DNA of 47,775 bases. It comes from a phage. Location of the stretch: the sequence record PZ445409.1; one strand, 5' to 3'. The notes below the pieces were generated by a model. It was not told where the DNA came from and did no database searches. It saw nothing but the letters and a program-made list of their open reading frames with translations. Of this stretch, positions 4,823-45,198 are shown one piece after another. The stretch's first letter is position 1; every line of letters starts with the position of its first letter. Both the position numbers and the translations under genes were made by a program.

Positions 4823-5332
4823 ATGGCTAAAATTGGAGCAAGTTATTTTGACACTATGGCGCGCGCGCTTCCTGGTCAGGTATCCGACACGTCGGCATAT
4901 AACATCGACGGCGCTTGCGTCCTTGACAAGGAAGACGGCATCCCAATCCTGGTTGGCGTGGCTGTTAAGCTAAAAGGCGTTGACTCAATGGGTAATAAGC
5001 TGATCGACGCTATTTCTGGTGGTGGTGATGTTCCTTATGGCGTTGGCATCCGCTCGCACTTTCAAACTACGGCTGATAATGGTCGAATGGTTTATGAGGC
5101 TGGCGGCGGAATCAACGTTATGACTGAGGGCCGTGTCTGGATGATTGGCGATGATTCCGATAAAAGCAAAAAGCCAGAATATCGTGATCCTGTAAAAATT
5201 GATGAAAACTCTGGCAAGGTGAAAAGTGCTGGCGCTATCAATACAAACTGGGTTTACACTGGCGATAAAACCACTTTTGGAACTGGCAATAATATGTTGA
5301 CTTTGTTTGAAGTTCAGGTCTTCCCAAGCTAA
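4823..5332 (+). CDS. head accessory/decoration protein (paralog 1)
   Basis: 169-aa ORF, AAGGAG RBS; shares YNIDG...GVxIRS...GxVW motifs with the next ORF; hairpin+T-run terminator at 5339-5363. Confidence 0.4.
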   Translation: MAKIGASYFDTMARALPGQVSDTSAYNIDGACVLDKEDGIPILVGVAVKLKGVDSMGNKLIDAISGGGDVPYGVGIRSHFQTTADNGRMVYEAGGGINVMTEGRVWMIGDDSDKSKKPEYRDPVKIDENSGKVKSAGAINTNWVYTGDKTTFGTGNNMLTLFEVQVFPS

Positions 5333-5338
5333 AATCAA

Positions 5339-5363
5339 GGCGCTCGCTTGAGCGCCTTTTTTA
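5339..5363 (+). terminator. intrinsic terminator
   Basis: Hairpin ggcgctcgcttgagcgcc + TTTTTT. Confidence 0.6.
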
Positions 5364-5382
5364 TTATGTAAGGAGAAATGAA

Positions 5383-6165
5383 ATGGCTAAAGATTATTCA
5401 TCTGTCATGGGTCTTTCTTGCCCTGGTTGTTTGGTTGATTCTACTCGCTACAATATTGATGGTACTGGCGTTTGTGGTTCTGAATCGATCATTGCTGGAA
5501 AGGTTGTTTTCTTTAAAGAAAGAGTTGAAGGTTACAACATATTTGTTGATCACAAAGAGGGTGACGCTGTGGTTGCTGGTGTTGCTATAAGGAGCAATAT
5601 CACGACAACGGTTAACGAGGAAGACGGATACTCTGACTATAAGGAAGGAGATTCTATCAACATTTTAACAAGAGGGGTTGTATGGTGCTTAACTCAAACG
5701 ATTGAGTCTGCGCCTGAGCATGGCGATCTTGTTTATGTTAACAATGATGGTTTTGTAGCAAGTAGTGATGGGGATGAAATCGTCGATGGCTGGATTTTTA
5801 CTGGTGACTTTTACAAGTTTGATGAAACAATGAACATAGTCGGAGTCAGAATAACGCCGCTTCATCATAGAAAATACCTTCTTACTGGTGCGATTATTGA
5901 GGCCGAAAATGGTTACGTAGAGGGAACAGAAACAATTGACAACGTTCAGCTAAAAGTAACCGTTGTTCCAACATGGGCTGACGACAAAACGGGGCAGTGG
6001 ACGATTACAAACGAGCAAGATCCAAAGGTTGCAAGCGTTAGTCGCACTGGCCTTGTAGTTCCTACTGGGGTAGGCGGACATGTTAATGTTAACTGGACTG
6101 CAAACGACGGTTCTGGAGTTGCTGATCAGTTTGACATAGTGTTCAGTAAAACAGTAGGCACTTAA
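5383..6165 (+). CDS. head accessory/decoration protein (paralog 2, C-terminal extension)
   Basis: 260-aa ORF, AAGGAG RBS 7 nt upstream; N-terminal half paralogous to 4823-5332; C-terminal about 90 aa beta-rich, possibly Ig-like. Confidence 0.4.
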   Translation: MAKDYSSVMGLSCPGCLVDSTRYNIDGTGVCGSESIIAGKVVFFKERVEGYNIFVDHKEGDAVVAGVAIRSNITTTVNEEDGYSDYKEGDSINILTRGVVWCLTQTIESAPEHGDLVYVNNDGFVASSDGDEIVDGWIFTGDFYKFDETMNIVGVRITPLHHRKYLLTGAIIEAENGYVEGTETIDNVQLKVTVVPTWADDKTGQWTITNEQDPKVASVSRTGLVVPTGVGGHVNVNWTANDGSGVADQFDIVFSKTVGT

Positions 6166-6191
6166 TGAATACCACAAAATAGATTTGCACC

Positions 6192-6208
6192 TTTAACAAA
6201 AAGTGCTA
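6192..6208 (+). promoter_or_regulatory. inverted copy of conserved element upstream of capsid gene
   Basis: TTTAACAAAAAGTGCTA flanked by TTGCAC (6185-6190) and TATCAT (6207-6212) with 16-bp spacing; followed by hairpin+T-run 6215-6241. Confidence 0.45.
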
Positions 6209-6214
6209 TCATGA

Positions 6215-6241
6215 GGCTGTTACTTGTTAACAGCCTTTTTT
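6215..6241 (+). terminator. intrinsic terminator/attenuator immediately upstream of capsid gene
   Basis: Hairpin ggctgtta-cttg-ttaacagcc + TTTTTT, 16 nt before capsid ATG. Confidence 0.5.
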
Positions 6242-6256
6242 ATAGGAGAAAAAATC

Positions 6257-7231
6257 ATGACAAAGAAAAAATATGATGAGCTAGACGCTTCCATTGTGTC
6301 TAATCACCTGCAATTGCAAGGTGTTAAGGGTGATGCTTCCGACATGGGTATTTGGACTGCTCAGGAGTTGCACAAAATCCGATCCACTGCTTACGAAAAA
6401 GAGTATCCAGCGGGTTCTGCGCTTCGCGTCTTCCCTGTCACCAATGAACTGAGCGACACCGACAAAACTTTCGAGTATCAGACTTTTGATAAAGTTGGTT
6501 ACGCGAAAATTATTGCAGACTACACCGACGACCTGCCGACCGTTGACGCTCTTATGACTTCTGAGTTTGGCAAAGTGTTCCGCATGGGTAACGCTTTCCT
6601 GATCTCAATTGACGAAATCAAAGCAGGTCAGCGAACTGGTAAAAGCCTTTCTACTCGCAAGGCTAACGCAGCGCAGAATGCACATGATCAGCTTATTAAC
6701 TTCCTGGTTTTCAAAGGTTCCAAGCCTCATAAGATCGTTTCCGTTTTCGATCATCCAAACCTGACTAAAATCACGTCAAAAGGATGGCTGAGTAAAGACG
6801 GAAACACAAAGTTTCCAGAAGTTGCAAGCGATGAGCTGGAGACTGCAATCGAAACGATCGAGGAAGTAACCAAAGGTCAGCATCGCGCGACTAACATCCT
6901 GATTCCGCCGTCTATGCGTAAAGTCCTTACGGTTCGAATGGAAAATACCACTGAAAGCTATTTGGAATACTTCCAGAAGCAAAACGACGGTATCACCATC
7001 GACTCCATTGCAGAGCTTGAGGATATTGACGGCAAAGGCACTAAAGGCTGCCTGGTTTACGAAAAAGATCCAATGAACATGAGCATTGAGATCCCGGAGG
7101 CATTCAATATGCTGCCTGCACAGCCGAAAGATCTGCATTTTAAAGTTCCTTGTACTTCAAAGTGCACTGGCCTTACAATTTACCGTCCGTTTACGATGGT
7201 TCTAATTACTGGCTTGAAAAAGGCTGCGTAA
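6257..7231 (+). CDS. major capsid protein
   Basis: 324-aa ORF starting at ATG 6257 with AGGAG RBS (track ORF 6224 starts inside a hairpin); position after decoration genes; strong terminator 7243-7272. Confidence 0.7.
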   Translation: MTKKKYDELDASIVSNHLQLQGVKGDASDMGIWTAQELHKIRSTAYEKEYPAGSALRVFPVTNELSDTDKTFEYQTFDKVGYAKIIADYTDDLPTVDALMTSEFGKVFRMGNAFLISIDEIKAGQRTGKSLSTRKANAAQNAHDQLINFLVFKGSKPHKIVSVFDHPNLTKITSKGWLSKDGNTKFPEVASDELETAIETIEEVTKGQHRATNILIPPSMRKVLTVRMENTTESYLEYFQKQNDGITIDSIAELEDIDGKGTKGCLVYEKDPMNMSIEIPEAFNMLPAQPKDLHFKVPCTSKCTGLTIYRPFTMVLITGLKKAA

Positions 7232-7242
7232 TTAGATAACAT

Positions 7243-7272
7243 GGGGAGCCTTAATGGTTCCCCTTTTTTTTA
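7243..7272 (+). terminator. intrinsic terminator after capsid gene
   Basis: Hairpin ggggagccttaatggttcccc + T9. Confidence 0.7.
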
Positions 7273-7289
7273 TTTACGGAGTACACAAA

Positions 7290-7556
7290 ATGAGCAAAAC
7301 TTTAAAACTTAAAGTAACTGGCGTTTGCATGATTATTATGAACGGTAAGCGTTATCATCCTGGTGATGAAATTGAAATTGAATCCGAACGCATTAATGAT
7401 TCCGCAATTGAATACCTGATCGCTCGCGGAGATGTGGAAGTTAAAGACAATTCAGAAATTAACGAGCAAATCAAGGAGAAAGCGGAGAAGAAGCGCAAAA
7501 AAGATCCTACCGAGGGTAAGAGCCGCAAAGAGCTAGAGGATGGCGGCGAATATTAA
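7290..7556 (+). CDS. hypothetical protein (lysine-rich C-terminus)
   Basis: 88-aa ORF from ATG 7290 with GGAG RBS; track start 7254 lies inside the upstream terminator. Confidence 0.5.
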
Positions 7557-7602
7557 TAATTGGGGCGCTTATGCGCCCTTTGTCACATCTGGAGAAAACA
7601 AA

Positions 7603-8022
7603 ATGGTAGATGAATTTTACACAGACGCTGAAATCATGCAGCAAATCGTAAAGTTAGCGCCGCCAATGCAACAAGTTGATCCCGATTTAATTGTGGCATG
7701 GATTGAGCTTGCTAAAGAGTTTGTTTGCAAAAAACGGTTTAAAAACTCATACCCGAAAGCGGTTGCGCTTTACACTCTTCACCTTATGACCTTAGACGGG
7801 GCAATGAAACAGGAAGGTGAAAGCGTAGAAAGCTATTCCCGCCGCGTTGCCTCGTTCACTCTGACTGGTGAGTTTAGTCAGACGTTTGATCGAATTTCTT
7901 CCGATACAAGCGGAAAGCAGATCCGACAAACGCCGTGGGGCAAAATGTACGAAGTGTTAAACCGTAAGCACGGTGGCGGCTTTGGCCTTGTGACTGGATT
8001 GCGCCGGAGATGCTGCCGATGA
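7603..8022 (+). CDS. head-tail connector/adaptor protein (positional)
   Basis: 139-aa ORF from ATG 7603 with GGAG RBS; position between capsid and tail genes. Confidence 0.4.
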
Positions 8023-8390
8023 ACTACAATGAGATTGCAAGAATGGCTACGGCTGGGATTAACTTTTTCAGCGACGCTAACGGTATGTTTAAGTGCATCA
8101 CGCAGCAGGGCGGAGTTGAGATTATCGGCGGAGAGGAAGTTACCAAGCCGGAGATTTCAGTGATGATAAAGGGGCTTGTTAGATCCCCTAGAACTAGAGA
8201 GGTTGACGGTGAAACAATCCGAGTAACCGACAAGTTGGGGATATTCACCAATGAAACTGAGATCAAAAATGGTTATCAGATTGAAATTGATGGCGAACGT
8301 TATGTTGTCGTTGAAGCAAGACCAGTCAGGCAGACTAACATCACGGCAGCTTATCGTCCGATATTAAGGAGGATTGCTGTGCATGGCTGA
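8019..8390 (+). CDS. neck / head closure protein (positional)
   Basis: 123-aa ORF; ATGA overlap with upstream stop; GGAG RBS. Confidence 0.4.
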
Positions 8391-8826
8391 TAATTATAAG
8401 ATCAGAGAATTTCACGGTGATATAAGCAGGTGGATTGATTCAGTAAGCAGCGGCCTTGTTGATTGCGTTGAAATGTTCGCGACAAACGTCCACGAGGATC
8501 TTGTAAATCGCTCGCCAGTTGATACGGGGCGATATAAAGCTAACTGGCAGATAACAGCAAACAAGCCGCCGCTATATGCGCTCAACCAATACGATCGCGA
8601 TGGTAGTAAAACCATTGCAGAAGGCAAGCGAGCAATATATGCAATCATGCGTGGCGGTGGCGCGGTGCGGTCAATCTATTTTTCAAACATGCTTATTTAC
8701 GCCAACGCGCTTGAATACGGTCATTCAAAACAAGCGCCGTCCGGCGTACTTGGAATCGTGGCGGTAAAGCTGCGATCTTATATGGCTAAGGCAATAAAGG
8801 ATTCGAGGGCAAAAAATGCACTATGA
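8383..8826 (+). CDS. neck / tail completion protein (HK97 gp10-like position)
   Basis: 147-aa ORF from ATG 8383 with AAGGAGG RBS; overlaps upstream gene by 8 nt. Confidence 0.4.
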   Translation: MADNYKIREFHGDISRWIDSVSSGLVDCVEMFATNVHEDLVNRSPVDTGRYKANWQITANKPPLYALNQYDRDGSKTIAEGKRAIYAIMRGGGAVRSIYFSNMLIYANALEYGHSKQAPSGVLGIVAVKLRSYMAKAIKDSRAKNAL

Positions 8827-9217
8827 TTTAATGTTGGCGGCAAGAAAGGCGCTGGCGGCTGAATATGAATCACGATTCAAGATCTCCTATGAAAACGTTG
8901 ATTTTGTACCGCCTGGAGACGGTTCTATGTGGTTAAAATTTGACTACATGGAAGCAGACACGGATCGCATATCTCTTGATAGAAAATGTGTTTCTTATAT
9001 CGGCTTGGTTCAGGTTGGAATTGTCATTCCTCCTGGCGGTGGCACTGATAACGCTCGTTTGCTGGCTAAAGAGATTGCGAGATTTTTCTATGATGGTAGA
9101 ATGTTTGAAACTGGCTATATTAGCGAGGGGGCAAACGTCCACGCATTACTAAAAAGTGAAACAGGTTGGTTCTTACCGATCCGTTTCAGTGTTAGGCTTG
9201 ACAAAAAGGAGGAATAA
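8816..9217 (+). CDS. tail terminator-like protein (positional)
   Basis: 133-aa ORF overlapping upstream gene by 11 nt; immediately before major tail gene. Confidence 0.4.
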   Translation: MHYDLMLAARKALAAEYESRFKISYENVDFVPPGDGSMWLKFDYMEADTDRISLDRKCVSYIGLVQVGIVIPPGGGTDNARLLAKEIARFFYDGRMFETGYISEGANVHALLKSETGWFLPIRFSVRLDKKEE

Positions 9218-9219
9218 TC

Positions 9220-9882
9220 ATGCACTTGCCTAATGGTTCTCAAATTTTCATCGGCGTTAATATGGGTGAGCCAATTAGCGCGACTCAAATCACCAATGCT
9301 GATGATCCTGTTTTTACAGCTACAAACACTCAAAGCATCAAAAAAGGTGCTTATGTTCTTATTGAAACATCTTCTTGGGGCAAACTTGTTAGTCGAGTGC
9401 TTCGAGTTAAGGAAGTATCAGATAATGTAAGTGTTACTCTTGAAGGTGTTAGCACTAAAGATACAAACGTATTTCCAGAAGGAGAGAACACAGCAACTTT
9501 CCGAGAAGTGAAATCTTGGGTGGAGGTTCCTTGCGTACAGGATCTTGCGCAGGACGGCGGCGAGCAACAGTATTACACTTATCAGTGTTTGGCTGATGAC
9601 CAGGAGCAGCAGTTGCCGACCTACAAGAGCGCCGTTTCTCTTACCTATACTTTCGCGCATGAGTATGATAATCCGATTTATCCGATCTTGCGCGAGGCTG
9701 AGGAATCCGGCGACGTGACCGCCTTGCGTATGTACGTGCCGAAAGCTAAAGAGATGCGTTGTTGGGCTGGCGTATTGTCTTTTAATGACATTCCGCAAAC
9801 CACTATGAACGAAATGGAAACTGTTTCCCTTTCCGTATCTCTGAAAGGTCGATTCACGTTCTTACCTTCTGACGTTAAGTAA
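9220..9882 (+). CDS. major tail (tube) protein
   Basis: 220-aa ORF, AAGGAGG RBS; precedes chaperone G/GT and tape measure; terminator 9888-9909 downstream. Confidence 0.6.
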   Translation: MHLPNGSQIFIGVNMGEPISATQITNADDPVFTATNTQSIKKGAYVLIETSSWGKLVSRVLRVKEVSDNVSVTLEGVSTKDTNVFPEGENTATFREVKSWVEVPCVQDLAQDGGEQQYYTYQCLADDQEQQLPTYKSAVSLTYTFAHEYDNPIYPILREAEESGDVTALRMYVPKAKEMRCWAGVLSFNDIPQTTMNEMETVSLSVSLKGRFTFLPSDVK

Positions 9883-9887
9883 AACAA

Positions 9888-9909
9888 GGGGCGTTGCGCC
9901 CCTTTTTTC
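9888..9909 (+). terminator. intrinsic terminator after major tail gene
   Basis: Hairpin ggggcgttgcgcccc + TTTTTT. Confidence 0.65.
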
Positions 9910-9948
9910 ATTCCTGTAAAATCAATCTATCAAATAAATTAATTCCAC

Positions 9949-9966
9949 TTTTAACAAAAAGTGCTA
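9949..9966 (+). promoter_or_regulatory. inverted copy of conserved element abutting RBS of chaperone G
   Basis: TTTTAACAAAAAGTGCTA ends 2 nt before AAGGAG RBS; 15 nt before ATG. Confidence 0.45.
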
Positions 9967-9981
9967 TAAGGAGATCTTGAG

Positions 9982-10299
9982 ATGGCAAAGATGAAACTAA
10001 CGTTAGGCCCACTGCCTGATTTTAAACTGCCTGTTTCTTTCGTGCTTCCAAATGGTGATGAGCAAGTTATTGTTTTCACTGTGCGCCACAAGAAGGCAAG
10101 CGAGATTCACGAACGATACACGGCAGAAAAGCCGATGAGCGACGTAGAAATGATCACCTTCCTTGCTTCCGGTTGGGATCTGGAAGATGAATTTAACGAG
10201 GAAAACGTTGCTAAATTGCTGGATTATTACCCTTCTGCGTCATTATCGCTGACTGGTCATTATATGAAAGCACTTGCGGGGCAGCGGGTAAAAAACTAA
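9982..10299 (+). CDS. tail assembly chaperone (G)
   Basis: 105-aa ORF immediately before tape measure; ends at slippery heptamer A_AAA_AAC (10290-10296) then TAA. Confidence 0.7.
   Translation: MAKMKLTLGPLPDFKLPVSFVLPNGDEQVIVFTVRHKKASEIHERYTAEKPMSDVEMITFLASGWDLEDEFNEENVAKLLDYYPSASLSLTGHYMKALAGQRVKN
10290..10296 (+). other. -1 programmed ribosomal frameshift slippery heptamer A_AAA_AAC
   Basis: Heptamer sits 1 codon before the G stop codon; -1 frame continues open to 10616. Confidence 0.65.
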
Positions 10300-10616
10300 A
10301 GCGGGCGGTTTACCTGTTTTACCTCAAGCCGCCAACTGACGCACAATTAGAGGCCGTCGGCCTATCCCGTTCAGACTACGAAGGGGAGGAGCCGCCGGAG
10401 GTAATTTTTGATGAATCAATGTTTCAATCTTGGGATCTGTTTTGCGCTATGCAGACGCAATGGAGATCGACTAGCGGCAGTGTGTATGGGTTCGACTATA
10501 ACGTTTTGCCTATGCTTTTTGACATTTACAAGATTGAGGATCGGGAGATGGCGCTAAATGATTTGCGCATCATGGAACAAAAGGCGCTAGAAATGATTCA
10601 TTCAAACAAAACATAA
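10296..10616 (+). CDS. tail assembly chaperone frameshift extension (T part of G-T fusion)
   Basis: -1 frame is open from the slippery site to 10616 with no stops (checked codon by codon 10290-10421); classic G/GT arrangement. Confidence 0.6.
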   Translation, partial: LKRAVYLFYLKPPTDAQLEAVGLSRSDYEGEEPPEVIFDESMFQSWDLFCAMQTQWRSTSGSVYGFDYNVLPMLFDIYKIEDREMALNDLRIMEQKALEMIHSNKT

Positions 10617-10637
10617 GCGCCGCGAGGCGCTTTTTTA
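10617..10637 (+). terminator. intrinsic terminator after G/GT
   Basis: Hairpin gcgccgcgaggcgc + TTTTTT. Confidence 0.6.
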
Positions 10638-10655
10638 ATATCTGGAGGTTTTAAA

Positions 10656-13337
10656 ATGGCTGAAAAATACGCTGGCCTAACGCTAGGCGTTGACGTGTCG
10701 CAGGTCAACAATGCTGTTAAATCATTGCAGCAATTCAAGAAGGCAAACGACGACGCAAAAAAAAGCGTTAATGAATTTGTTGATTCTGAGGTTGTGGCGC
10801 GACAGCAAGCAAAACAGCTTGCCGAAGAACTGGCGCGCCAGAAAGCAGAATTTAAGAAAATCCAGGAGTCAATTGATCCCACCGCATCAAAGATGGATAA
10901 GCTGCGAAAGACAGCGACACAGCTTGATGCGCTATGGAAAAAGGGCGTTGTTCCTGATCAGACTTTTTTTGAGCTTGGGGCAATTCTTGAGACGCAGCAA
11001 AACAAGCTGATCGCAACCAAAAAAGCGATGACAGAGGAAGGCCGCGCGGCGCTTGAGGAATCAAAGAACAAGGCGCGTGCAGCGGAAGAGGCTAAAAAAT
11101 TCGTCCAGGCTTTGCGTGAGCAGGAAGAAGCAGCAGGAAAAAGCAAGTCTGAATTGCTGGAAATGAAAGCGGCACAGCTTGGAGTTAGCCAGGAGGCAGC
11201 ACCTTACATCGCAAGACTGAAAGAGCAGGAAAAGCAGATCCAAAAACTTGGGATTTCTACAGGCCAATACAATCAAGCAATGAAGCTATTGCCAATGCAG
11301 ATCACAGACGTGGTGACTTCACTTGCTTCTGGTATGCCTGTTTGGCTGGTTGCAATCCAGCAGGGCGGACAGATTAAGGATTCTTTTGGTGGCGCATCCA
11401 ATGCTTTAAAAGCGTTGCTATCTTTCCTTAATCCGGTAAACGTTGCGTTTGGCTTGCTTTCCGGCACGCTGGCAATTGCTGCATATAATGCCTACAAAAC
11501 ACAGACAGAGTTTGAGGCAATTAAAAAAACCGTTCAGGAAACAACTGGCTTGACTGGTGATTTTGCCGAAAAGATTGCTACCGGAATCCAGGAGCTTTCC
11601 GACAAGACAGGCGAAAGCGCCGAAGATCTGGCAAAGGCTTACATCACCACGAAAGACGGCGCGAGCGAGGCGATTAAAAAACTGGTTGACGTTGGCATGA
11701 CTTATGATGACGCAAAAAAGAAAGTCAACGAGTACAAAGGCGCATCTAGCTTTGTTGGCCTGAATAACGACATTGCAAACCACAAAAATAAAATCCTTGA
11801 GTTGGGCGAGTCGTGGTATGAAGTTTTGAAAGCGAAGCGTGATTACGCTTCCCCGTCCGGCGGCCTGTTAGGTAAAGAGCTTGGCTATGTTAATCCTATG
11901 CTTAAGTTTGCACTTAACACTTATGAAGACATTGGAAAGGTCGTAAAAGATGCTAATAAGGACATGGCTGAACGAGCGGAGCGCATCGACAAAGAAAACC
12001 TGGCCTTGAACAGAGTGAGAGCAGCACAGGAGGCTTTAAACAAAGCCATTGAAGATCAGAAGGGTGTTGCGCGTTCGGCTGATGAAGAACTGAAAAAGCG
12101 TGCGGCTGAAAACGTGGAGTTCAGACGCAAAGAGCTTGAGGAGATCAAGAAGCAGGAGCAGAAAAAGAAAGAGGCTAAAGGCGGAATAGTTCGCGGCCCG
12201 ACTGAGCAGCTTGATAAAGAGTTGTACGTTTTAAAAGCGCAACTGGAAACGCTTAAAGAGCATCGCACTGTTAATGATGTTATTTCTCGCCAGCGTAAAT
12301 CTTTATGGAGCATCGAAAAGCAGATCGAGATCCTGGAGGATGCGCAGAGTAAGCGTAAATTGACCGGAGCGGAACAGGCGCTACTAAATGAGCAAAAATC
12401 CGTTTTGGAAATGGCAAGGCAAAAGGCTGAATTAGGGGATCAGATTGTTTTGCAGGAGCGCAAAAACAAGCTGGAGCAAGATAGCATTAAGTTTATCCGT
12501 GAAACGCAGGCGGCTATTGATGTGCTTGGCCTTAAGCAACTTGGCTACACTGAAAAGCAGATCGAGCGTGAGCTAGAGTTACGCAAGCTGCGCACCGACT
12601 ACGAGGCGCAAGGAGGAAGCGTTAGCGATGAAGTTTTTCAGCAAATGGAGGCGAAACTTAAGCAGTATTATCAGACACAGGATGAGGTTCAAGGCAACTG
12701 GTTGGCAGGAGCAAAAAACGCATGGGAGCTATTCGCGGAAGATGCAAACAATGCCTATGGCAATGTTCAGCAGATCGCAAGCGAGGCGTTAAACGGCCTT
12801 ACAAACCAATTAGCGAATTTTATCGCTACTGGCAAGGCAAACTTTAAAGACTTCTCGACGGCTATCATCAAAATGATTATTCAGATGATCACGAAAATGG
12901 TTGTCTTTAATGCGTTATCTGGCCTGATGGGTGGTCAAACCTGGACGATGGGGAGCTTGCTTAAGAACATTGGCGGATTTGCTGGCGGTGGATACACTGG
13001 CGACGGCGGGAAGTATGAGCCAGCCGGAATTGTCCATAAAGGTGAATTTGTCATGACGAAGGAGGCGACGCAGCGTATCGGGGTAGGCAACTTGTACCGC
13101 ATGATGCGAGGCTATGCTAACGGCGGCGTTGTTGGTAGTTACGGCTATACTGGCGGTGGCGCTGTCACTGGTGGAGCACCTCAATTTAACATCGGTGGGA
13201 TTGATGTTAGCATCAATAACGGCAGCGATCCGAAGGGCATCGAAACTGGCGTTAAGATGATCTTTACTGATATGATTAGACGTTCCTGTATGCAGGGCGG
13301 GGAGGTTTACGAATTTGTTATGAGCAAGCGAGGTTGA
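10656..13337 (+). CDS. tail tape measure protein
   Basis: 893-aa ORF, GGAGG RBS; long coiled-coil-rich sequence with Gly-rich C-terminal region; follows G/GT chaperone. Confidence 0.85.
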   Translation: MAEKYAGLTLGVDVSQVNNAVKSLQQFKKANDDAKKSVNEFVDSEVVARQQAKQLAEELARQKAEFKKIQESIDPTASKMDKLRKTATQLDALWKKGVVPDQTFFELGAILETQQNKLIATKKAMTEEGRAALEESKNKARAAEEAKKFVQALREQEEAAGKSKSELLEMKAAQLGVSQEAAPYIARLKEQEKQIQKLGISTGQYNQAMKLLPMQITDVVTSLASGMPVWLVAIQQGGQIKDSFGGASNALKALLSFLNPVNVAFGLLSGTLAIAAYNAYKTQTEFEAIKKTVQETTGLTGDFAEKIATGIQELSDKTGESAEDLAKAYITTKDGASEAIKKLVDVGMTYDDAKKKVNEYKGASSFVGLNNDIANHKNKILELGESWYEVLKAKRDYASPSGGLLGKELGYVNPMLKFALNTYEDIGKVVKDANKDMAERAERIDKENLALNRVRAAQEALNKAIEDQKGVARSADEELKKRAAENVEFRRKELEEIKKQEQKKKEAKGGIVRGPTEQLDKELYVLKAQLETLKEHRTVNDVISRQRKSLWSIEKQIEILEDAQSKRKLTGAEQALLNEQKSVLEMARQKAELGDQIVLQERKNKLEQDSIKFIRETQAAIDVLGLKQLGYTEKQIERELELRKLRTDYEAQGGSVSDEVFQQMEAKLKQYYQTQDEVQGNWLAGAKNAWELFAEDANNAYGNVQQIASEALNGLTNQLANFIATGKANFKDFSTAIIKMIIQMITKMVVFNALSGLMGGQTWTMGSLLKNIGGFAGGGYTGDGGKYEPAGIVHKGEFVMTKEATQRIGVGNLYRMMRGYANGGVVGSYGYTGGGAVTGGAPQFNIGGIDVSINNGSDPKGIETGVKMIFTDMIRRSCMQGGEVYEFVMSKRG

Positions 13338-13695: not shown

Positions 13696-13719
13696 AGCCG
13701 CCTTTGTGCGGCTTTTTTC
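13696..13719 (+). terminator. intrinsic terminator
   Basis: Hairpin agccgcctttgtgcggct + TTTTTT. Confidence 0.6.
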
Positions 13720-13752
13720 TTGATGTTACAATGAGCAAAAAGGAGGTAGAAA

Positions 13753-14514: not shown

Positions 14515-15245
14515 TGATTAGTGCAAAAGTTAAACTTGAAATAATGCAGCACGTTAAAGAGGAATACCCTAAAGAGGCTTGCGGCGTCATAACTCAAAAA
14601 TCACGGGTACAGAAATATCACCGCATAACCAACGTGCATGACGATCCAGAAAATCATTTTGAAATGGACGCCGTAGAATACGCTGAATCGCTCGACAAAG
14701 GCGAATTAATCGCGGTGGTGCATTCCCATTGCGGGGATGGTGCTAGCACGATACCGAGCGCGCACGACTCATGTATGTGCGATGAAATGGGTGTGTCGTG
14801 GATTATAGTGTCATGGCCAGAAGGTGATATGAGAATTGTCGAGCCGCAGGAGAGGCCGCTTATCGGTCGCCCGTGGTCGCTGGGGTCGTTCGATTGCTGG
14901 GGTCTTATCATGGCATGGCATAAACAGCACGGAGTAGTATTGAATGACTTCCGAAAGCCTTACGAGTGGTGGAAGTCAGAATATGGTGAAAATCTTTACC
15001 AGGATAATTATTTGAAAGAGGGATTTGTTGAAACTAACGAGCCTCCAAAACCTGGTGATATGGTGATTATGCAGCTATCATCGCCAGTCTGGAATCATGC
15101 GGGGATTTATTTGGGTAACAATCAGCTATTACATCATGCGTTTGGAAAGCTATCTCGCATTGACTTGTATTCTGGATGGTATCAGGAGCACACTGTAAAA
15201 ATTTGCCGACATAAGGATCTGAAATATGACATTGAAAGTAATTAA
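14514..15245 (+). CDS. tail assembly protein K-like (JAB/MPN + NlpC/P60)
   Basis: 243-aa ORF from ATG 14514 (TAATG overlap); HSHCGDG...S..HD JAB-like motif and DCWGL...H Cys-His pair. Confidence 0.6.
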   Translation: MISAKVKLEIMQHVKEEYPKEACGVITQKSRVQKYHRITNVHDDPENHFEMDAVEYAESLDKGELIAVVHSHCGDGASTIPSAHDSCMCDEMGVSWIIVSWPEGDMRIVEPQERPLIGRPWSLGSFDCWGLIMAWHKQHGVVLNDFRKPYEWWKSEYGENLYQDNYLKEGFVETNEPPKPGDMVIMQLSSPVWNHAGIYLGNNQLLHHAFGKLSRIDLYSGWYQEHTVKICRHKDLKYDIESN

Positions 15246-15829: not shown

Positions 15830-15851
15830 CCCGCCTTGCGCGGGTTTTTTT
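15830..15851 (+). terminator. intrinsic terminator before J gene
   Basis: Hairpin cccgccttgcgcggg + T7. Confidence 0.6.
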
Positions 15852-15900
15852 GTGCATTTATAATGTGCAAACCAAGAAACAGCACAAAAGGTTAAAAGTC

Positions 15901-20716: not shown

Positions 20717-20758
20717 ACTATACACGATCCGACAAGCTGGGTTTAGCAAAAAGTGCTA
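20717..20758 (-). promoter_or_regulatory. phage promoter unit upstream of cor (variant element + TATAGT)
   Basis: Minus strand TAGCACTTTTTGCTAAAC then 18 nt then TATAGT; AAGGAG RBS and cor ATG follow. Confidence 0.5.
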
Positions 20759-21128
20759 CATGTTATTTTTTGTTTTCCGGTGTTATCGGATTTAAGACGG
20801 CGTAAATTTAGCGCAAATTTTAGCCAACATAATAACAATAAATAATCAATAAAATAGATATATACATATAAAATCAATAGTTTATTTATTTATGTATGTA
20901 TATTTGTTTTTTCTTGTTATCTGTGTTCCTTGTGGTTTTGGTTGTTTGTGGTGATTTTTCTTTCTGAGTATCTGTATGTGCCATCATTCATGTGTATGTA
21001 TATAATCCGGCGTATCTGAGAGAACAAGGGAACAAGAAAAATAACACATATTAATCATTAACTTACGAGTCAAATTTGTTTTATTGCCATATGAGAACGT
21101 TTAGAAAACAGAAAAAACAAATCACCTA
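20759..21128. repeat. AT-rich regulatory region A with alternating Pu/Py (GTATGTATAT) blocks and T/G-rich core
   Basis: Noncoding; shares TTCCG-GATAAC elements, GTATsTATAT blocks, T/G-rich core and GGGAACAAGAAAAA (21028-21041) with region B in the same orientation. Confidence 0.5.
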
Positions 21129-21156
21129 TTGACTAAACGCATCAAATAGCTAAAAT
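21129..21156 (+). promoter_or_regulatory. sigma70-like promoter (TTGACT-16-TAAAAT) for recombination operon
   Basis: -35 at 21129-21134, -10 at 21151-21156; GAGGA RBS and ATG 21186 downstream. Confidence 0.55.
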
Positions 21157-21185
21157 GCAGGCATACCAACCAATGAGGACGAATC

Positions 21186-22247: not shown

Positions 22248-22323
22248 ACCGCACAAATAGCTAAACAAATGATTAGCGCGGTGTTATAATTCGCCGCGCA
22301 GGTTAACAAATAATGGATTAATT

Positions 22324-26469: not shown

Positions 26470-26488
26470 TAGCACTTTTTGCTAATGA
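26470..26488 (-). promoter_or_regulatory. inverted copy of conserved element abutting RBS of side tail fibre gene
   Basis: Coding (minus) strand reads TCATTAGCAAAAAGTGCTA then tACAGGAGA RBS then ATG at 26451. Confidence 0.45.
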
Positions 26489-26516
26489 CAACATTGAGAA
26501 TAGCAGTTTTGCAGGC

Positions 26517-27542: not shown

Positions 27543-28019
27543 TTAGCTATTCGTGCTGTTATCACCTTTGTAGAATCTTCCGCCTGGTTCGTAGTCTGAA
27601 TTTTTGACTACGCGCAACATTTCGTATTTGTCGCAACGGGTAGTAAGAGGCTTGCCGTTAGAATCAAACCGCAGATCTGGACGACAAAACGAGGCGCGGT
27701 ATCCTTTGCATCCATTATATTTGTAGTCGTTATGCACCTTTTGTGCTCCAGCGGCTGAAATCATACCACGCTTTCGCCATTGGTTAACAACTTGCTGAGA
27801 TACGCGCAGACGTCGAGCCATAGCAGGAACGCCGCCGTAATACTCGATCAGAATGTCAAGGCGAGATTTCAGGCTTGCTTTTACCTCATCTCGCAGGATA
27901 AGAAATCCGGTTCGATGTTTTCGTGGCTTTTTGTCTTTACCTCGTCGCGTTCCGTTGTTACCGTTAATAGTGCGCTTGTCGATCTCACCAGTAGACACTG
28001 CAATTCGTGCATCTTTCAT
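27543..28019 (-). CDS. XRE/Cro-like HTH DNA-binding protein
   Basis: 158-aa ORF with GAGGTGA RBS; helix-turn-helix GGVPAMARRLRVSQQVVNQWRKRG; Cys-rich C-terminal part; inverted copy of the conserved 19-bp element in its 5-prime UTR. Confidence 0.55.
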   Translation of the reverse strand: MKDARIAVSTGEIDKRTINGNNGTRRGKDKKPRKHRTGFLILRDEVKASLKSRLDILIEYYGGVPAMARRLRVSQQVVNQWRKRGMISAAGAQKVHNDYKYNGCKGYRASFCRPDLRFDSNGKPLTTRCDKYEMLRVVKNSDYEPGGRFYKGDNSTNS

Positions 28020-28031
28020 CTAGTCACCTCA

Positions 28032-28074
28032 TAGCATTTTTTGTTAAAACAGTTTATTGTAATGAGTCTATTAT
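28032..28074 (+). promoter_or_regulatory. phage promoter unit (19-bp element + 18-bp spacer + TATTAT)
   Basis: TAGCATTTTTTGTTAAAAC at 28032-28050, hexamer 28069-28074; 32 nt before helicase ATG. Confidence 0.6.
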
Positions 28075-28106
28075 ATACTCCAAATGGCATTTTTTAAAGG
28101 TTTAAG

Positions 28107-30104: not shown

Positions 30105-30523
30105 TGGCTATAACTGATAAAGGCGATTATCTTGAGTTTTACGAAAGGGATCCAACCGACACGAGAAGGGAAGTTAATCACCAGATAGATAGTTTTCAGT
30201 GGTTGACTTATGCTCATCCTTATTTGCTGGCGTGGCATACGGTAAACGAGAATGAGAAGTCTAAAGCAACGGCGATGATTGATCAGCAGTCCGGCTTGGT
30301 TAAGGGAGTAAGCGATTTCATCATCCTGATTGGTTTAAACGGAAAATATCCCTTTGCGGCGATTGAGATCAAACGAGTGAATAAATCAGGCAAGGGGAAA
30401 GCATCACCAGTCAGCGATGAACAAAAGGCTTTTTTGCGTCGCGTTCGCAGCTTAGGAGGATTCGCTGCGGTAGCCTACGGATTCAATCAGTTTAAGTTGG
30501 CTATTGAATACATGCTTAAATAG
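30104..30523 (+). CDS. VRR-NUC domain nuclease
   Basis: 139-aa ORF, TAATG overlap with helicase; PD-(D/E)XK-like DFIIL...EIKR...QKAFL. Confidence 0.6.
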   Translation: MAITDKGDYLEFYERDPTDTRREVNHQIDSFQWLTYAHPYLLAWHTVNENEKSKATAMIDQQSGLVKGVSDFIILIGLNGKYPFAAIEIKRVNKSGKGKASPVSDEQKAFLRRVRSLGGFAAVAYGFNQFKLAIEYMLK

Positions 30524-30563
30524 CACTTTTTGTTAAAACTGGCGCGATGGATTGCGCCATAAT
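30521..30563 (+). promoter_or_regulatory. phage promoter unit (element + spacer + CATAAT)
   Basis: TAGCACTTTTTGTTAAAAC begins with VRR-NUC stop TAG; hexamer 30558-30563; upstream of dam. Confidence 0.6.
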
Positions 30564-31591: not shown

Positions 31592-31634
31592 TAGCACTTT
31601 TTGTTAAAACGCCCGGCCTAGTGTCGGGCATAAT
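31592..31634 (+). promoter_or_regulatory. phage promoter unit (element + spacer + CATAAT)
   Basis: Element directly after TAA stop; 18-bp spacer gcccggcctagtgtcggg identical to the minus-strand unit at 34810-34852. Confidence 0.6.
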
Positions 31635-32079: not shown

Positions 32080-32173
32080 GGATAGTTATCATGTGGCGCT
32101 TGTTTGTTCTACCGTTACACGTTATCATCGCTGTTACAGTTATGTACCATATAGTAATGAGATAGGTAGCAGA

Positions 32174-34809: not shown

Positions 34810-34852
34810 AATATACCCGACACTAGGCCGGGCGTTTTAACAAAAAATGCTA
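34810..34852 (-). promoter_or_regulatory. phage promoter unit (element + TATATT)
   Basis: Minus strand TAGCATTTTTTGTTAAAAC + gcccggcctagtgtcggg + TATATT; inverted near-identical copy of 31592-31628. Confidence 0.6.
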
Positions 34853-35044
34853 TTCCATACGCTTTACCGTAACCAGTAATACACCATCATCATTGCATAA
34901 AACATGTTCAGTGGTGCTAAAAGCGCGCATATCTGAATAAAGTAGCGTAAGTAAAGCATGAATAAAATCCTCATGTGATATTGAATTTACGGCGCAGTGC
35001 TTCAAGATCTTGTCTATTAGCTTTTGCCTGGAACAATTCATCAT
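34850..35044 (-). CDS. hypothetical small ORF (alternative frame)
   Basis: 64-aa ORF whose TAG stop is the TAG of the conserved promoter element (as for several other genes); overlaps 3-prime end of 34971-35366 by 74 nt in another frame. Confidence 0.25.
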   Translation of the reverse strand: MMNCSRQKLIDKILKHCAVNSISHEDFIHALLTLLYSDMRAFSTTEHVLCNDDGVLLVTVKRME

Positions 35045-35366: not shown

Positions 35367-36946
35367 CCCAGCAGTATTGGATTGACAAAAATAACACCAT
35401 TAATCACACAAACATAATTTCTTTCTTCCAGCATTGGCAGCAAGTGCCCTTCTATCCTCTTCATTACGCCAGCCTGACCAACGAAAGGTTTTACCTTTCT
35501 CGCTGATTCGTACAGGGCGCGAATATTCAGGATCCCTTTGTTAGCCTTGCCGTGTCTAGTGATCAATTCAATCAATTTACCCATTTCAGCATCATCACCA
35601 GCATAACCAGAAGCATTGGCGGCGCTAATGTATGTTTTGCTCAATTCCTGAAACATGATCAGCGCCTCTTGCATTGTTTCCACGTCGATCTCTTTCGACT
35701 TCTGCGGGTATCCGGCAGGATTAAACCAGTTGCGGATAACATGCAGGACGGAAGCAAGCCTGATCACCTGTTTATCCATTTTACCCAGCGCACCGCGTAA
35801 CATTGTATGAGAATACTTTCCGCCGTCTGCAAGATGCGGTTCCATATCCTGGCGAGCAATGTTGAGCACTCGCATAGCTGAACGGCTTATTTTCAGCGAT
35901 ATATTTGATTCGCTCATGATGTTATGCACCAATTGATAATATTGGGCCTTCAATTCAGGATCCACCGCCTCATAGGTAGAATCACCATTTTCATCAATGA
36001 ATGAGCGACGGCCTAAGAATGATTCCTCACGGACCAACAAAAAGCGCTCACTCACACCGATACCGCGCGATCCAGCGTCCATGATTCCGCTTATCGTTTC
36101 ATCCTGGGCTATAACGCTCATACATCCAAGCGCGCGAAAACTCATGTTATTGTCAGCATTAGCACGGGCAATTGATACGTGACCATTATCCCACGCCTTA
36201 AGCACTAGCTCGCTGTTAGTCTTCCTTTCGCTATTGGCATAGGTCAAGCCTAACAGGCTGTTAATACTTGTTGCTTCGTCAGATATTACGGCAAAGTTAC
36301 CTTGCTTGTTGTTGATTTTCGCCAAGCCTTCTGGAGTGGTATCTGAAACAGGGAAAGTTATATCACACATCTTTTCCAGCTTCTCCTCCAGATCCTCTTT
36401 TTCCTGGTATAGAGATTCCATATCAGCGCCTGATCTTTCGCTTTTCATCTCCTTTGCAAGACCTGCCAACTTTGCCTGTATTTTCTTTCTTTCCTTGCGG
36501 CGTTGCTCGTTGATCTTCTCAACTTCCGCAATCATCGGAGCAATAGCCATACTGTTGATCGCAGATTTACCAGTTGACGGCGGCTGGCTTGTAACTACGT
36601 AAAGCGCAGTCGGCTGATCTGTTCCGTGGTAGTCAACTGTGAATCGACCAAGCATAGCGGCAGAAATACATCCGATAAAGTGCATGTAGGCCGATGATTC
36701 AGGGAATTGAACAGATCTCGCAAGATTGCGCGCCAGCTTACCAACTACATCAACATCATTCCCAAGTGAAATAACAGGGTAGCGGTCGTTACCGCCGTTA
36801 ATATCTTCCACCTGGCCCCAATAGCTTGAAGATTGGCGGTATCCGTTGGCCTGAATGGATACACGAACAGGGGAAATACCTTGAGATTCGGCGGTTTCAA
36901 TGATTTGTTTCGGTGATAACTGACTTGTTTCAAATGAAAAATTCAT
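35363..36946 (-). CDS. P-loop NTPase (DUF3987/primase-helicase-associated-like)
   Basis: 527-aa ORF with AGGAG RBS; deviant Walker A (QPPSTGKS), central charged coiled-coil segment; driven by promoter unit 36974-37016. Confidence 0.5.
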   Translation of the reverse strand: MNFSFETSQLSPKQIIETAESQGISPVRVSIQANGYRQSSSYWGQVEDINGGNDRYPVISLGNDVDVVGKLARNLARSVQFPESSAYMHFIGCISAAMLGRFTVDYHGTDQPTALYVVTSQPPSTGKSAINSMAIAPMIAEVEKINEQRRKERKKIQAKLAGLAKEMKSERSGADMESLYQEKEDLEEKLEKMCDITFPVSDTTPEGLAKINNKQGNFAVISDEATSINSLLGLTYANSERKTNSELVLKAWDNGHVSIARANADNNMSFRALGCMSVIAQDETISGIMDAGSRGIGVSERFLLVREESFLGRRSFIDENGDSTYEAVDPELKAQYYQLVHNIMSESNISLKISRSAMRVLNIARQDMEPHLADGGKYSHTMLRGALGKMDKQVIRLASVLHVIRNWFNPAGYPQKSKEIDVETMQEALIMFQELSKTYISAANASGYAGDDAEMGKLIELITRHGKANKGILNIRALYESARKVKPFVGQAGVMKRIEGHLLPMLEERNYVCVINGVIFVNPILLG

Positions 36947-36973: not shown

Positions 36974-37016
36974 ATGTTACCGCACCAATACTACCCTTAT
37001 TTGTCAAAAAGTGCTA
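36974..37016 (-). promoter_or_regulatory. phage promoter unit (variant element + TAACAT)
   Basis: Minus strand TAGCACTTTTTGACAAATA + 18 nt + TAACAT; upstream of ATPase gene. Confidence 0.5.
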
Positions 37017-37650: not shown

Positions 37651-37693
37651 ATTATGCCCGACTCAAGGTAGGGCGTTTTAACAAAAAGTGCTA
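37651..37693 (-). promoter_or_regulatory. phage promoter unit (element + CATAAT)
   Basis: Minus strand element starts with methyltransferase-like gene stop TAG; hexamer at 37656-37651. Confidence 0.6.
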
Positions 37694-42505: not shown

Positions 42506-42545
42506 CACTTTTTGCAAAAACAGATTGTCGGGCTTGCGGTATAGT
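42503..42545 (+). promoter_or_regulatory. phage promoter unit (variant element + TATAGT)
   Basis: TAGCACTTTTTGCAAAAAC begins with lipoprotein stop TAG; hexamer 42540-42545. Confidence 0.55.
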
Positions 42546-42576
42546 AAGCCCATCAACAACAAACGAGGATTAAATC

Positions 42577-43806: not shown

Positions 43807-43846
43807 CACGAATTGCTAAACGCGGGGTTATCGGCCCCGCTATAAT
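43804..43846 (+). promoter_or_regulatory. phage promoter unit (variant element + TATAAT)
   Basis: TAGCACGAATTGCTAAAC begins with kinase stop TAG; hairpin gcggggttatcggccccgc; hexamer 43841-43846. Confidence 0.55.
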
Positions 43847-44356: not shown

Positions 44357-44620
44357 ATGGTTTTTAACGCATTGAAACGACTGTTTAAGCCGGAATACCG
44401 GATCGTTGCTTGCACAGAATGCAAGATTTATTATCTGCAACGCCGCCGCGTTATTAGTGGGGATTGGGAATATCTGACGGATGATGCTTTCGGCTTTTGG
44501 GCTATGGAGTTCAATAGCTACAGCGAAGCGCTCGAATACGCTAAAAAGTTGCACAAGTTCAGACCTTACAAGCTGCGTTTGCTGGTTGTCAAAAAGTGCG
44601 ACGTATGGGATCACGAATGA
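44357..44620 (+). CDS. hypothetical protein
   Basis: 87-aa ORF with GAGGG RBS; hairpin then TATTAT 38 nt upstream. Confidence 0.5.
   Translation: MVFNALKRLFKPEYRIVACTECKIYYLQRRRVISGDWEYLTDDAFGFWAMEFNSYSEALEYAKKLHKFRPYKLRLLVVKKCDVWDHE
44586..44601 (+). promoter_or_regulatory. inverted copy of conserved element 15 nt before ATG 44617
   Basis: TTGTCAAAAAGTGCGA lies inside the 3-prime end of ORF 44357-44620. Confidence 0.35.
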
Positions 44621-45123: not shown

Positions 45124-45166
45124 TAGCACTTTTTGTTAAAACTTCCGCAAGGGCATTTGGTAAAGT
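45124..45166 (+). promoter_or_regulatory. phage promoter unit (element + TAAAGT)
   Basis: TAGCACTTTTTGTTAAAAC directly after TAA stop; hexamer 45161-45166. Confidence 0.5.
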
Positions 45167-45198
45167 GCCCTTATTGAAGCGAAACAGAGGAAAGCGCA

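Follow-up and report, generated by a model that had tools for sequence, protein, structure and literature searches.

Inverted copies of the T1-like phage repeat as candidate DNA-level operators in late and regulatory promoters

What is the role of copies of an intergenic repeat that read against the direction of the genes they precede? This question is raised by a T1-like siphovirus, a Drexlerviridae coliphage, whose sequence record PZ445409.1 was analysed as one stretch of 47,775 nucleotides (nt), called here the window. An earlier note had described five inverted copies of a 19-bp element touching the Shine–Dalgarno sequence (SD) of late structural genes and of an XRE-like regulatory gene, and had proposed that one DNA- or RNA-binding factor controls these genes. 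Four of the copies are real, at 6190 (capsid), 9948 (tail chaperone), 26470 (side tail fibre) and 28032 (XRE). It seems to us, on balance, probable from their sequence context that they are ordinary copies of the T1-like repeat, acting as DNA-level sites for one regulator that would activate promoters from about –42 and would gate host-type promoters elsewhere. The fifth copy, claimed at 44586–44601 on the plus strand, was discarded as a chance match within an open reading frame; it shares only the 10-mer CAAAAAGTGC and has 6 mismatches in 19 positions.

A search of the window with the 19-mer GTTTTAACAAAAAGTGCTA gave 12 matches at up to 3 mismatches where 0.03 are expected. The core pattern TAGCA[CT]NNNTTG[CT]TAA is better, allowing a variable centre, and gave 15 copies at up to 1 mismatch (0.43 expected). 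All four confirmed inverted copies fit this core, and by its sequence the element is the repeat already reported for phage TLS, a 21-nt direct repeat, aaATAGCACnnnTTGnTAAAA, with 18 intergenic copies (PMC11447400). Similar repeats were stated for T1, Rtp and Rogue1, and stoperators, enhancer sites and UP-like elements were offered as possible roles, the function being left as an open question (PMC11447400, 2024). In TLS the orientation of the repeats follows the direction of transcription and they lie about 76 nt upstream of start codons (PMC11447400). The 12 forward units of our window follow this rule, whereas the inverted copies have the opposite orientation and lie 12–49 nt from the ATG. 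One copy in the TLS table, DR7, lies on the minus strand although the capsid gene that follows it is on the plus strand (PMC11447400), and so breaks the stated rule. DR7 is orthologous to the capsid copy at 6190–6208, and DR8 of TLS is orthologous to a copy at 15880–15898. Gene order is the same in phage T1 (AY216660, locus L001), and the region 5000–11000 shares 93–94% identity with Escherichia phages Poky, FritzSarasin, tunus and others. T1 and many T1-like contigs from IMG/VR have the capsid, chaperone, fibre and XRE copies in the corresponding places, and the capsid copy is also kept in Vibrio phage Vc1. A literature search for the repeat sequence itself gave nothing beyond the TLS paper.

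In all 12 forward units in the window a [TC]AnnnT hexamer lies 17–18 nt downstream of the element, and the layout runs TAGCACnnnTTGnTAAAAC, 17–18 nt, [TC]AnnnT, about 5 nt, a CA-rich leader such as CATCAACAACAAAC, the SD GAGGA and the ATG. Where a –35 would lie there is TAAAAC or AAAACn, a match at 2 of 6 positions at best. We considered TTGTTA within the element as a sigma70 –35 and rejected it, the spacer being 22 bp; with TTGnTA 22 bp from the –10, the forward units therefore have no sigma70 –35. When we infer transcription start sites (TSSs) from the –10, the element spans –49 to –31 with its dyad centre at about –42. A site near –41.5 over a missing or poor –35, followed by a good –10, is thus present in the forward units, including those headed by the 9948 copy on the minus strand and the 28032 copy on the plus strand. 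With the TSSs so placed, the position of the dyad appears to be that of a class II activator site. The core of the element is a near dyad, TAGCA-N5-TG(C/T)TA, and is a perfect palindrome in the TTGCTA variants. We examined this core in 130 distinct copies, selected by an exact match to ATAGCAC-NNN-TTG so that the pattern itself dictates both blocks; at position 13, which it leaves free, C and T are about equally frequent. As a comparison, phage Mu promoters dependent on Mor or C and T4 promoters dependent on MotA, which are middle or late, likewise have a good –10, no –35 and an upstream box at fixed spacing. The T4 MotA box is centred at about –30, unlike the element described here, which also has another sequence. 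No homologues of MotA/AsiA or Mor were found in the few early proteins scanned; no genome-wide search was made.

Many forward-unit promoters also have a GC-rich hairpin nested within them (30540–30563, 31611–31634, 34810–34833, 36974–36997, 37651–37674, 42522–42551, 43823–43846 and 45143–45172). In five units (30521, 31592, 34834, 37675 and 43804) the hairpin fills the 18-nt spacer between element and –10, and in three (36998; 42503, with GGGCTTgcggTATAGTAAGCCC; 45124, with AAGGGCAtttggTAAAGTGCCCTT) it brackets the –10. Pairing is kept while stem sequences differ across units and phages, which suggests that the hairpins may be terminators or RNA hairpins of upstream transcripts packed into the next promoter. 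The degenerate forward copy at 36998–37016, TAGCACTTTTTGACAAATA, which heads the gene for a DUF3987 ATPase, contains a perfect TTGACA, 22 bp from the –10 TAACAT.

The inverted copies had been treated as one uniform class adjoining the ribosome-binding site (RBS). This did not survive closer inspection. Two of them appear to be operator-only copies, placed in the promoter spacer (capsid) or at about +1 of an extended –10 promoter (fibre). The other two (chaperone and XRE) are also complete forward units aimed in the opposite direction, whose predicted –10 overlaps or abuts a sigma70 –10. The absence of a phased –10 before the RBS, stated in the earlier note, holds for the interval between element and RBS, but a –10 in the gene direction is found at every site, either overlapping the element or immediately upstream. 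Relative to these predicted gene-directed sigma70 promoters, the element would cover about –29 to –11 at the capsid gene, +1 to +19 at the fibre gene, +13 to +31 at the XRE gene (and –49 to –31 of the helicase promoter) and +19 to +37 of the transcript for the chaperone and tape-measure genes. Because of this overlap, occupancy of the element should repress or gate these promoters. We also tried to read the inverted element itself as a promoter at every site, with TGcTATnnn as an extended –10. This was rejected since only the capsid copy has TAnnnT together with a –35; in this reading the chaperone, fibre and XRE copies have no TAnnnT ending with a –35.

The capsid promoter is reported by a promoter scan, with a TG preceding the –10, and the T1 GenBank record has a predicted promoter annotated at the orthologous position, followed by a terminator. 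Each of the 11 lineages aligned, T1, TLS-like contigs and Vibrio phage Vc1 among them, has the element here. In this alignment the TTG of the –35, the element and the T-A-T..T of the –10 are invariant at constant spacing while the surroundings vary, so that the conserved pattern is TTG-16-TGnTATnnT with the element as spacer. On the minus strand, TAnnnT at 18 nt occurs in none of the aligned lineages and the capsid copy is therefore not a forward unit. Its location within –35 to +20 of a recognizable sigma70 promoter is that of a repressor operator. The hairpin that follows is kept between lineages although its stem sequence differs. Read-through RNA folds at –19.6 kcal/mol (z –2.9), whereas RNA beginning at 6219 cannot form the hairpin. 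The promoter's own transcript would thus escape while read-through terminates, which would explain a promoter directly before a terminator.

An invariant block, TAnCAnAAAA, lies at constant spacing 5–15 bp upstream of the capsid –35 (6170–6183 and orthologues) and resembles both the A-tract of an UP element and a partial second copy of the TAACAAAAA half of the element. At the portal and capsid genes (1590–1618 and 6207–6237) a terminator hairpin lies within 1–6 nt of the promoter with the predicted TSS inside the stem, and transcripts from both promoters would escape the terminator that stops upstream read-through. The T1 GenBank record labels predicted promoters at 15062–15089, 30319–30346, 32109–32138 and 36483–36511 as 'RpoD-independent', although a sigma70-type tool predicted them; 'RpoD-dependent' was probably meant.

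At the side-fibre gene the 3' A-tract of the element is degenerate (TTAATGA). The copy is also found in T1, at 34903. We found no forward-type –10 on the other strand. In the gene direction, 11 of 12 distinct orthologous sequences have the extended –10 TGnTAnnnT exactly 8 nt from the element, in versions that include TGCTATAAT, TGCTAGAAT, TGCTAAAAT and TGCTATTAT; the exception, L043, keeps TATAAT with TGa before it instead of TGc. The predicted TSS falls at about the first base of the element and, like the capsid copy, this one lies within –35 to +20 of a recognizable promoter, where a repressor operator would be.

The chaperone copy has a different anatomy. TAnnnT occurs on the minus strand exactly 18 nt from the element in 14 of 14 distinct orthologous sequences, as TAGATT, TATATT, TAAGAT, TATCAT, TAGCAT, TATCTT, TAGAGT or TACAGT. 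The T, the A and the final T of this hexamer are invariant and positions 3–5 vary; the spacer has diverged almost wholly. One base to the left of this leftward –10 is a plus-strand TAnAAT that is conserved in all lineages, and TLS-like phages without an element at this site retain a –10-like TAATAT after the terminator. The distance between element and ATG visibly depends on the lineage. The leftward start would be about 12 bp from the rightward start; the two open complexes would then overlap and should be mutually exclusive. The design of the rightward promoter, a TTG in a terminator loop 17 bp before TAnAAT, recurs at 13705–13733 and 15836–15864. TTGCGC or TTGTGC lies in the loop or 3' arm of late terminators at 9894–9899, 13705–13710 and 15836–15841, so that the –35 of the next promoter appears to lie inside the preceding terminator at three late sites.

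At the XRE/helicase site the two promoters share a –10 region. The seven base pairs of TAnnnTA encode the –10 of both genes in every lineage examined, and the distance from element to ATG again differs visibly between lineages. The promoter of the XRE-like gene is orthologous to P57 of TLS (TTGACT-17-TATCAT), which is near consensus and is one of only three sigma70 promoters accepted by the TLS authors (PMC11447400). In agreement with the earlier note, the element lies in the predicted leader of the XRE gene itself, which suggests autoregulation. A host-type promoter and an element in its own leader would suit an immediate-early, autoregulated master regulator.

Two more copies adjoin the RBSs of late genes. 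The one at 1567–1585 spans about –35 to –17 of a TATAAT at 1590–1595, followed by a terminator hairpin and the portal gene. That at 15880–15898, which has orthologues in lineages besides TLS, lies at about +10 to +28 after TTGCGC(15836)-17-TATAAT(15859–15864). T1 has a forward-oriented copy whose start is overlapped by the small-terminase promoter TGgTAAAAT. Not all late promoters carry the element, since the extended –10 TGtTACAAT at 13725 has no copy. The features are collected in Table 1.

Table 1. Element copies, predicted promoters and associated features in the window
Feature	Position	Strand	Remarks
Element copy TAGCACTAATTGCTAAAAA	1567–1585	+	Forward orientation; TerL stop codon; overlooked in the earlier note
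Predicted sigma70 capsid promoter	6184–6212	+	TTTGCA-17 (or TTGCAC-16)-TGcTATCAT
Element copy TAGCACTTTTTGTTAAAGG, capsid site	6190–6208	–	Capsid-promoter spacer, extending into the start of the –10
Terminator-like hairpin and T-run	6213–6237	+	Between promoter and capsid SD; predicted TSS at ~6218–6220 in 5' arm
Major capsid protein gene	6258–7231	+	True ATG at 6258; SD AGGAG upstream
Bidirectional terminator-like hairpin	9886–9904	both	After the major tail gene
Predicted rightward promoter	9894–9922	+	TTGCGC (terminator loop)-17-TAAAAT (9917–9922); predicted TSS ~9929
Leftward –10 TAGATT	9924–9929	–	Exactly 18 nt downstream of the element
Element copy, chaperone site	9948–9966	–	15 nt before tail-chaperone ATG 9982; heads a complete minus-strand forward unit
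Degenerate element copy CAGCACAAAAGGTTAAAAG	15880–15898	+	Forward orientation; just before ATG of J-like tail-fibre gene; overlooked in the earlier note
Forward unit	20740–20758		For minus-strand lipoprotein-like gene; overlooked in the earlier note
Element copy TAGCACTTTTTGCTAATGA, fibre site	26470–26488	+	18 nt before minus-strand fibre ATG 26451
Extended –10 TGcTATTCT (TGCTATTCT in the window)	26497–26505	–	Gene direction; 8 nt upstream of the element
Cro-like helix-turn-helix (HTH) regulator gene	27543–28019	–	Candidate binder of the element
Element copy, XRE/helicase site	28032–28050	+	Common to helicase forward unit and XRE-like leader; 12 nt before ATG 28019
7-mer TATTATA (TAnnnTA)	28069–28075	both	TATTAT (28069–28074) for helicase, TATAAT for XRE
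Predicted sigma70 promoter of XRE-like gene	28070–28098	–	TTTAAA-17-TATAAT; promoter scan 10/12; predicted TSS ~28062

The earlier note had placed the inverted element in the 5' untranslated region (UTR), in contact with the SD, and had allowed for control of translation. For three sites our predictions place it similarly, in the 5' leader next to the SD. At 9948, 26470 and 28032 only 2–4 nt separate the element from the SD and its transcription is predicted, as would be the case if it served as a translational operator in the mRNA, in the form GUUUUAACAAAAAGUGCUA. The capsid copy, however, is upstream of the predicted TSS and 49 nt from the ATG with a hairpin in between. The late region also has copies in both orientations, those at 1567 and 15880 (the portal and J copies) being forward and those at 6190 and 9948 inverted, which means that the RNAs would carry complementary sequences. 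The distance from element to ATG is 12–49 nt across the four sites of the window and, as noted, shifts between lineages at the same site, whereas the distance to promoter hexamers is fixed. Folding of the predicted 5' UTRs gave z values of –0.45, –0.62 and +2.2 with the SD unpaired, and thus no significant RNA structure or sequestration of the SD in the predicted leaders. In a translational operator one would expect the orientation in the mRNA not to vary, and the relation to the SD to be fixed or a structure to be conserved, which is not what these sites show. Together with the fact that the same sequence is plainly a DNA-level component of promoters in 12 units, these data leave the element scarcely any prospect of acting on translation. 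Going by this arrangement, it is most likely a DNA-level operator controlling transcription.

A DNA-level role does not by itself specify what reads the element. Host RNA polymerase could do so directly, either unmodified, with the element as a UP-like or otherwise unusual upstream element, or by means of a small phage specificity or appropriation factor. On this view the inverted chaperone and XRE copies would be promoters of divergent or antisense transcripts and the capsid copy would belong to a core promoter; none would serve separately as an operator. UP elements are located at about –59 to –38. The element does not have that position, lying at –49 to –31, and its most conserved block, ATAGCAC, contains G and C rather than being A/T-rich. 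In favour of such a role, its 3' part is rich in T/A tracts, and a resemblance to UP elements was raised by the TLS authors (PMC11447400). Recognition by polymerase would be in keeping with the strictly fixed spacing to the –10, with the complete units that the chaperone and XRE copies form on the other strand, and with the near identity of the element across the family, a phage reportedly of Vibrio included, in contrast to phage proteins that have diverged to about 50% identity. Against this, no –10 lies at 18 nt from the fibre, capsid, portal or J copy; these copies are nevertheless conserved, and so are not promoter modules of this type. The TLS authors also found no sigma factor or polymerase gene (PMC11447400). 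We regard direct reading by polymerase as unlikely, although it is the alternative to which we give most weight.

We also asked how well the element fits known host sites. A host DNA-binding protein, such as Lrp or another global regulator, could bring about the same activation and repression, and the extreme conservation of the element across phages of different enterobacterial hosts would agree with a host partner. One variant, TAGCACTTTTTGCTA, fits the Lrp consensus yAGhAwATTwTdCTr at 13 of 15 positions. About 12 Lrp matches at up to 2 mismatches are expected in a sequence the size of the window, however, and most variants have 3–4 mismatches. An Lrp site was rejected because element variants, with 2–4 mismatches, resemble the consensus no better than by chance, and no other host consensus site was found to fit by inspection. 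We therefore see only a slim chance that a host protein binds the element. The sigma54 promoter consensus is TGGCAC-N5-TTGC. The corresponding part of the element is TAGCAC-N3-TTGC, in which the spacing is 2 bp too short and AG replaces GG in all copies, and this candidate was also rejected.

Another possibility is that all copies are stoperator-like, acting purely as repressor sites or roadblocks, and that the forward units fire without any factor. The stoperators of mycobacteriophage L5, bound by gp71, are likewise many copies of a short site in short intergenic spaces, some of them downstream of promoters. They are asymmetric and act as orientation-dependent roadblocks, a dependence on orientation that Brown and colleagues reportedly described in 1997. 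In our window the element is intergenic and lies downstream of predicted TSSs at four to five sites, and the analogy was raised by the TLS authors (PMC11447400). It differs from an L5-type site in having a near-dyad core, in occurring in both orientations rather than one and in being phased with a –10 in most copies. The late-region copies show no orientation bias relative to transcription. The forward units lack a –35 and hold the element at a fixed 17–18 nt from the –10, a promoter-like phasing that is unlike that of roadblocks. A role as stoperators at every copy therefore seems quite improbable to us.

We return to the reading that one regulator acts at all these sites. That a single element occurs in two kinds of context, for both of which one factor is plausible, was proposed in the earlier note and agrees with our results. 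The regulator would probably be a dimer. At the roughly 12 forward units, where the dyad is near –42 of promoters with only a –10, a bound class II activator would recruit host RNA polymerase. Binding at the XRE and chaperone sites would switch polymerase away from the sigma70 promoter and onto the divergent one; for XRE, autoregulation would in this way be coupled to activation of the helicase gene. Besides the TSSs of Table 1, the model places starts near 1602(+), 9917(–), 15871(+), 26490(–) and 28081(+), and it would entail a switch from the 28062(–) start to that at 28081(+) between the early and middle phases. We infer both the sign of these effects (activation or repression) and the identity of the binder.

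The best candidate for the binder is the Cro-like HTH protein encoded next to the XRE/helicase site, an assignment that is circumstantial. The product, of 158 aa, falls in PHROG 2856, 'transcriptional regulator', and matches YdaS and P22_Cro of Pfam below threshold. There are 824 phage records with homologues, the listed ones being from T1-like phages. Pfam and PHROG scans of other early proteins, of which few were scanned, gave no other clear DNA-binding candidate, and two T1 orthologues annotated as 'RipR-like HTH' fall in PHROGs of unknown function. The most conserved part of the protein is a basic N-terminal arm, DKRxxNGNNGxxRGxD. As an observation in its own right, this arm (D14-K-R-x-x-N-G-N-N-G-x-x-R-G-x-D29) is invariant across 25 diverse homologues and more conserved than the HTH; it is probably disordered. 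A C-terminal segment, GYRASFCRPDLxFDxNGKP, is also conserved.

Several points weigh against this account. The dyad falls short of perfect symmetry, and it has asymmetric flanks. In the 130-copy set the search pattern itself dictated the left half, ATAGCAC; looser matches from Vc1 vary more in the right half. The rightward chaperone promoter has a weak –35 and is missed by a simple scan because that –35 scores only 3 of 6. The leftward promoter at the same site has no obvious product, and its transcripts would hit the 9886–9904 terminator after about 40 nt. The model leaves unexplained how repression of late promoters is relieved late in infection. Vc1 keeps the same element though the putative recognition helix of its regulator differs. 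With the element unchanged and the protein altered, the case for the Cro-like protein as binder is weaker, and a partner that is itself better conserved, for example RNA polymerase, would fit; as a test of covariation between helix 3 and element, the comparison with the distant Vc1 neither supports nor excludes the Cro-like protein. Finally, a literature search gave no transcriptome, TSS map, binding study or expression study for any T1-like phage.

The mechanism would be similar to that of lambda CI at OR, or of class II activators that double as repressors; binding and contact with sigma are predictions. Lambda CI activates PRM from about –42 and represses PR, and here too the dyad lies at about –42 over a poor –35, the site also overlaps a divergent promoter for the regulator's own region and the candidate binder has a Cro/CI-type HTH fold. 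Unlike in lambda, there is no lysogeny and at least 15 sites are spread over a virulent genome. The XRE and helicase promoters also share one –10 region and are not back to back as at OR. A broader version of this idea is that one near-dyad operator and one Cro-like protein, with its invariant basic N-terminal arm, run most of the temporal programme of T1-like phages, activating a dozen or more promoters without a –35 from –42 and gating the host-type promoters of the regulator's own gene and of the capsid, tail and fibre operons. Among its parts would be 'promoter-flip' modules, pairs of a sigma70 and an activator-dependent promoter on opposite strands whose –10 sequences are identical or neighbouring. 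This extension is tentative, and we would sooner bet against it than on it.

Elsewhere in the window, a non-coding and very AT-rich region of about 420 bp (20760–21185) lies between a cor-like lipoprotein gene and an exonuclease VIII-like gene. It contains the short repeats tatgtatgtata, ttatttattta and ggttttggttgtttgtgg, ends in a near-consensus sigma70 promoter, TTGACT-17-TAAAAT (~21121–21149), and could be an origin or another cis-acting region. The motif AAATAGCTAAA, which is like the element minus its centre, occurs at ~21143–21153 and ~22251–22261, where it adjoins or overlaps the –10 regions of two host-type promoters of recombination genes.

T1 is a classic coliphage whose gene regulation is essentially uncharacterized. 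The analysis yields a testable circuit with a near-dyad operator, predicted TSSs, putative activating sites at –42, putative occluding sites in sigma70 promoters and a candidate regulator. The dyad core, the fixed 18-nt phasing to the –10 and the copies embedded in sigma70 promoters are not described in the TLS account of the repeat. The shared divergent –10, the predicted TSS inside a terminator stem and the –35 inside a terminator loop may be of use as parts for synthetic biology. On the most ordinary reading, this would be another phage regulator with dual activator and repressor sites. The broader version given above would, if true, answer what the TLS authors had asked, namely what the 21-base repeat does.

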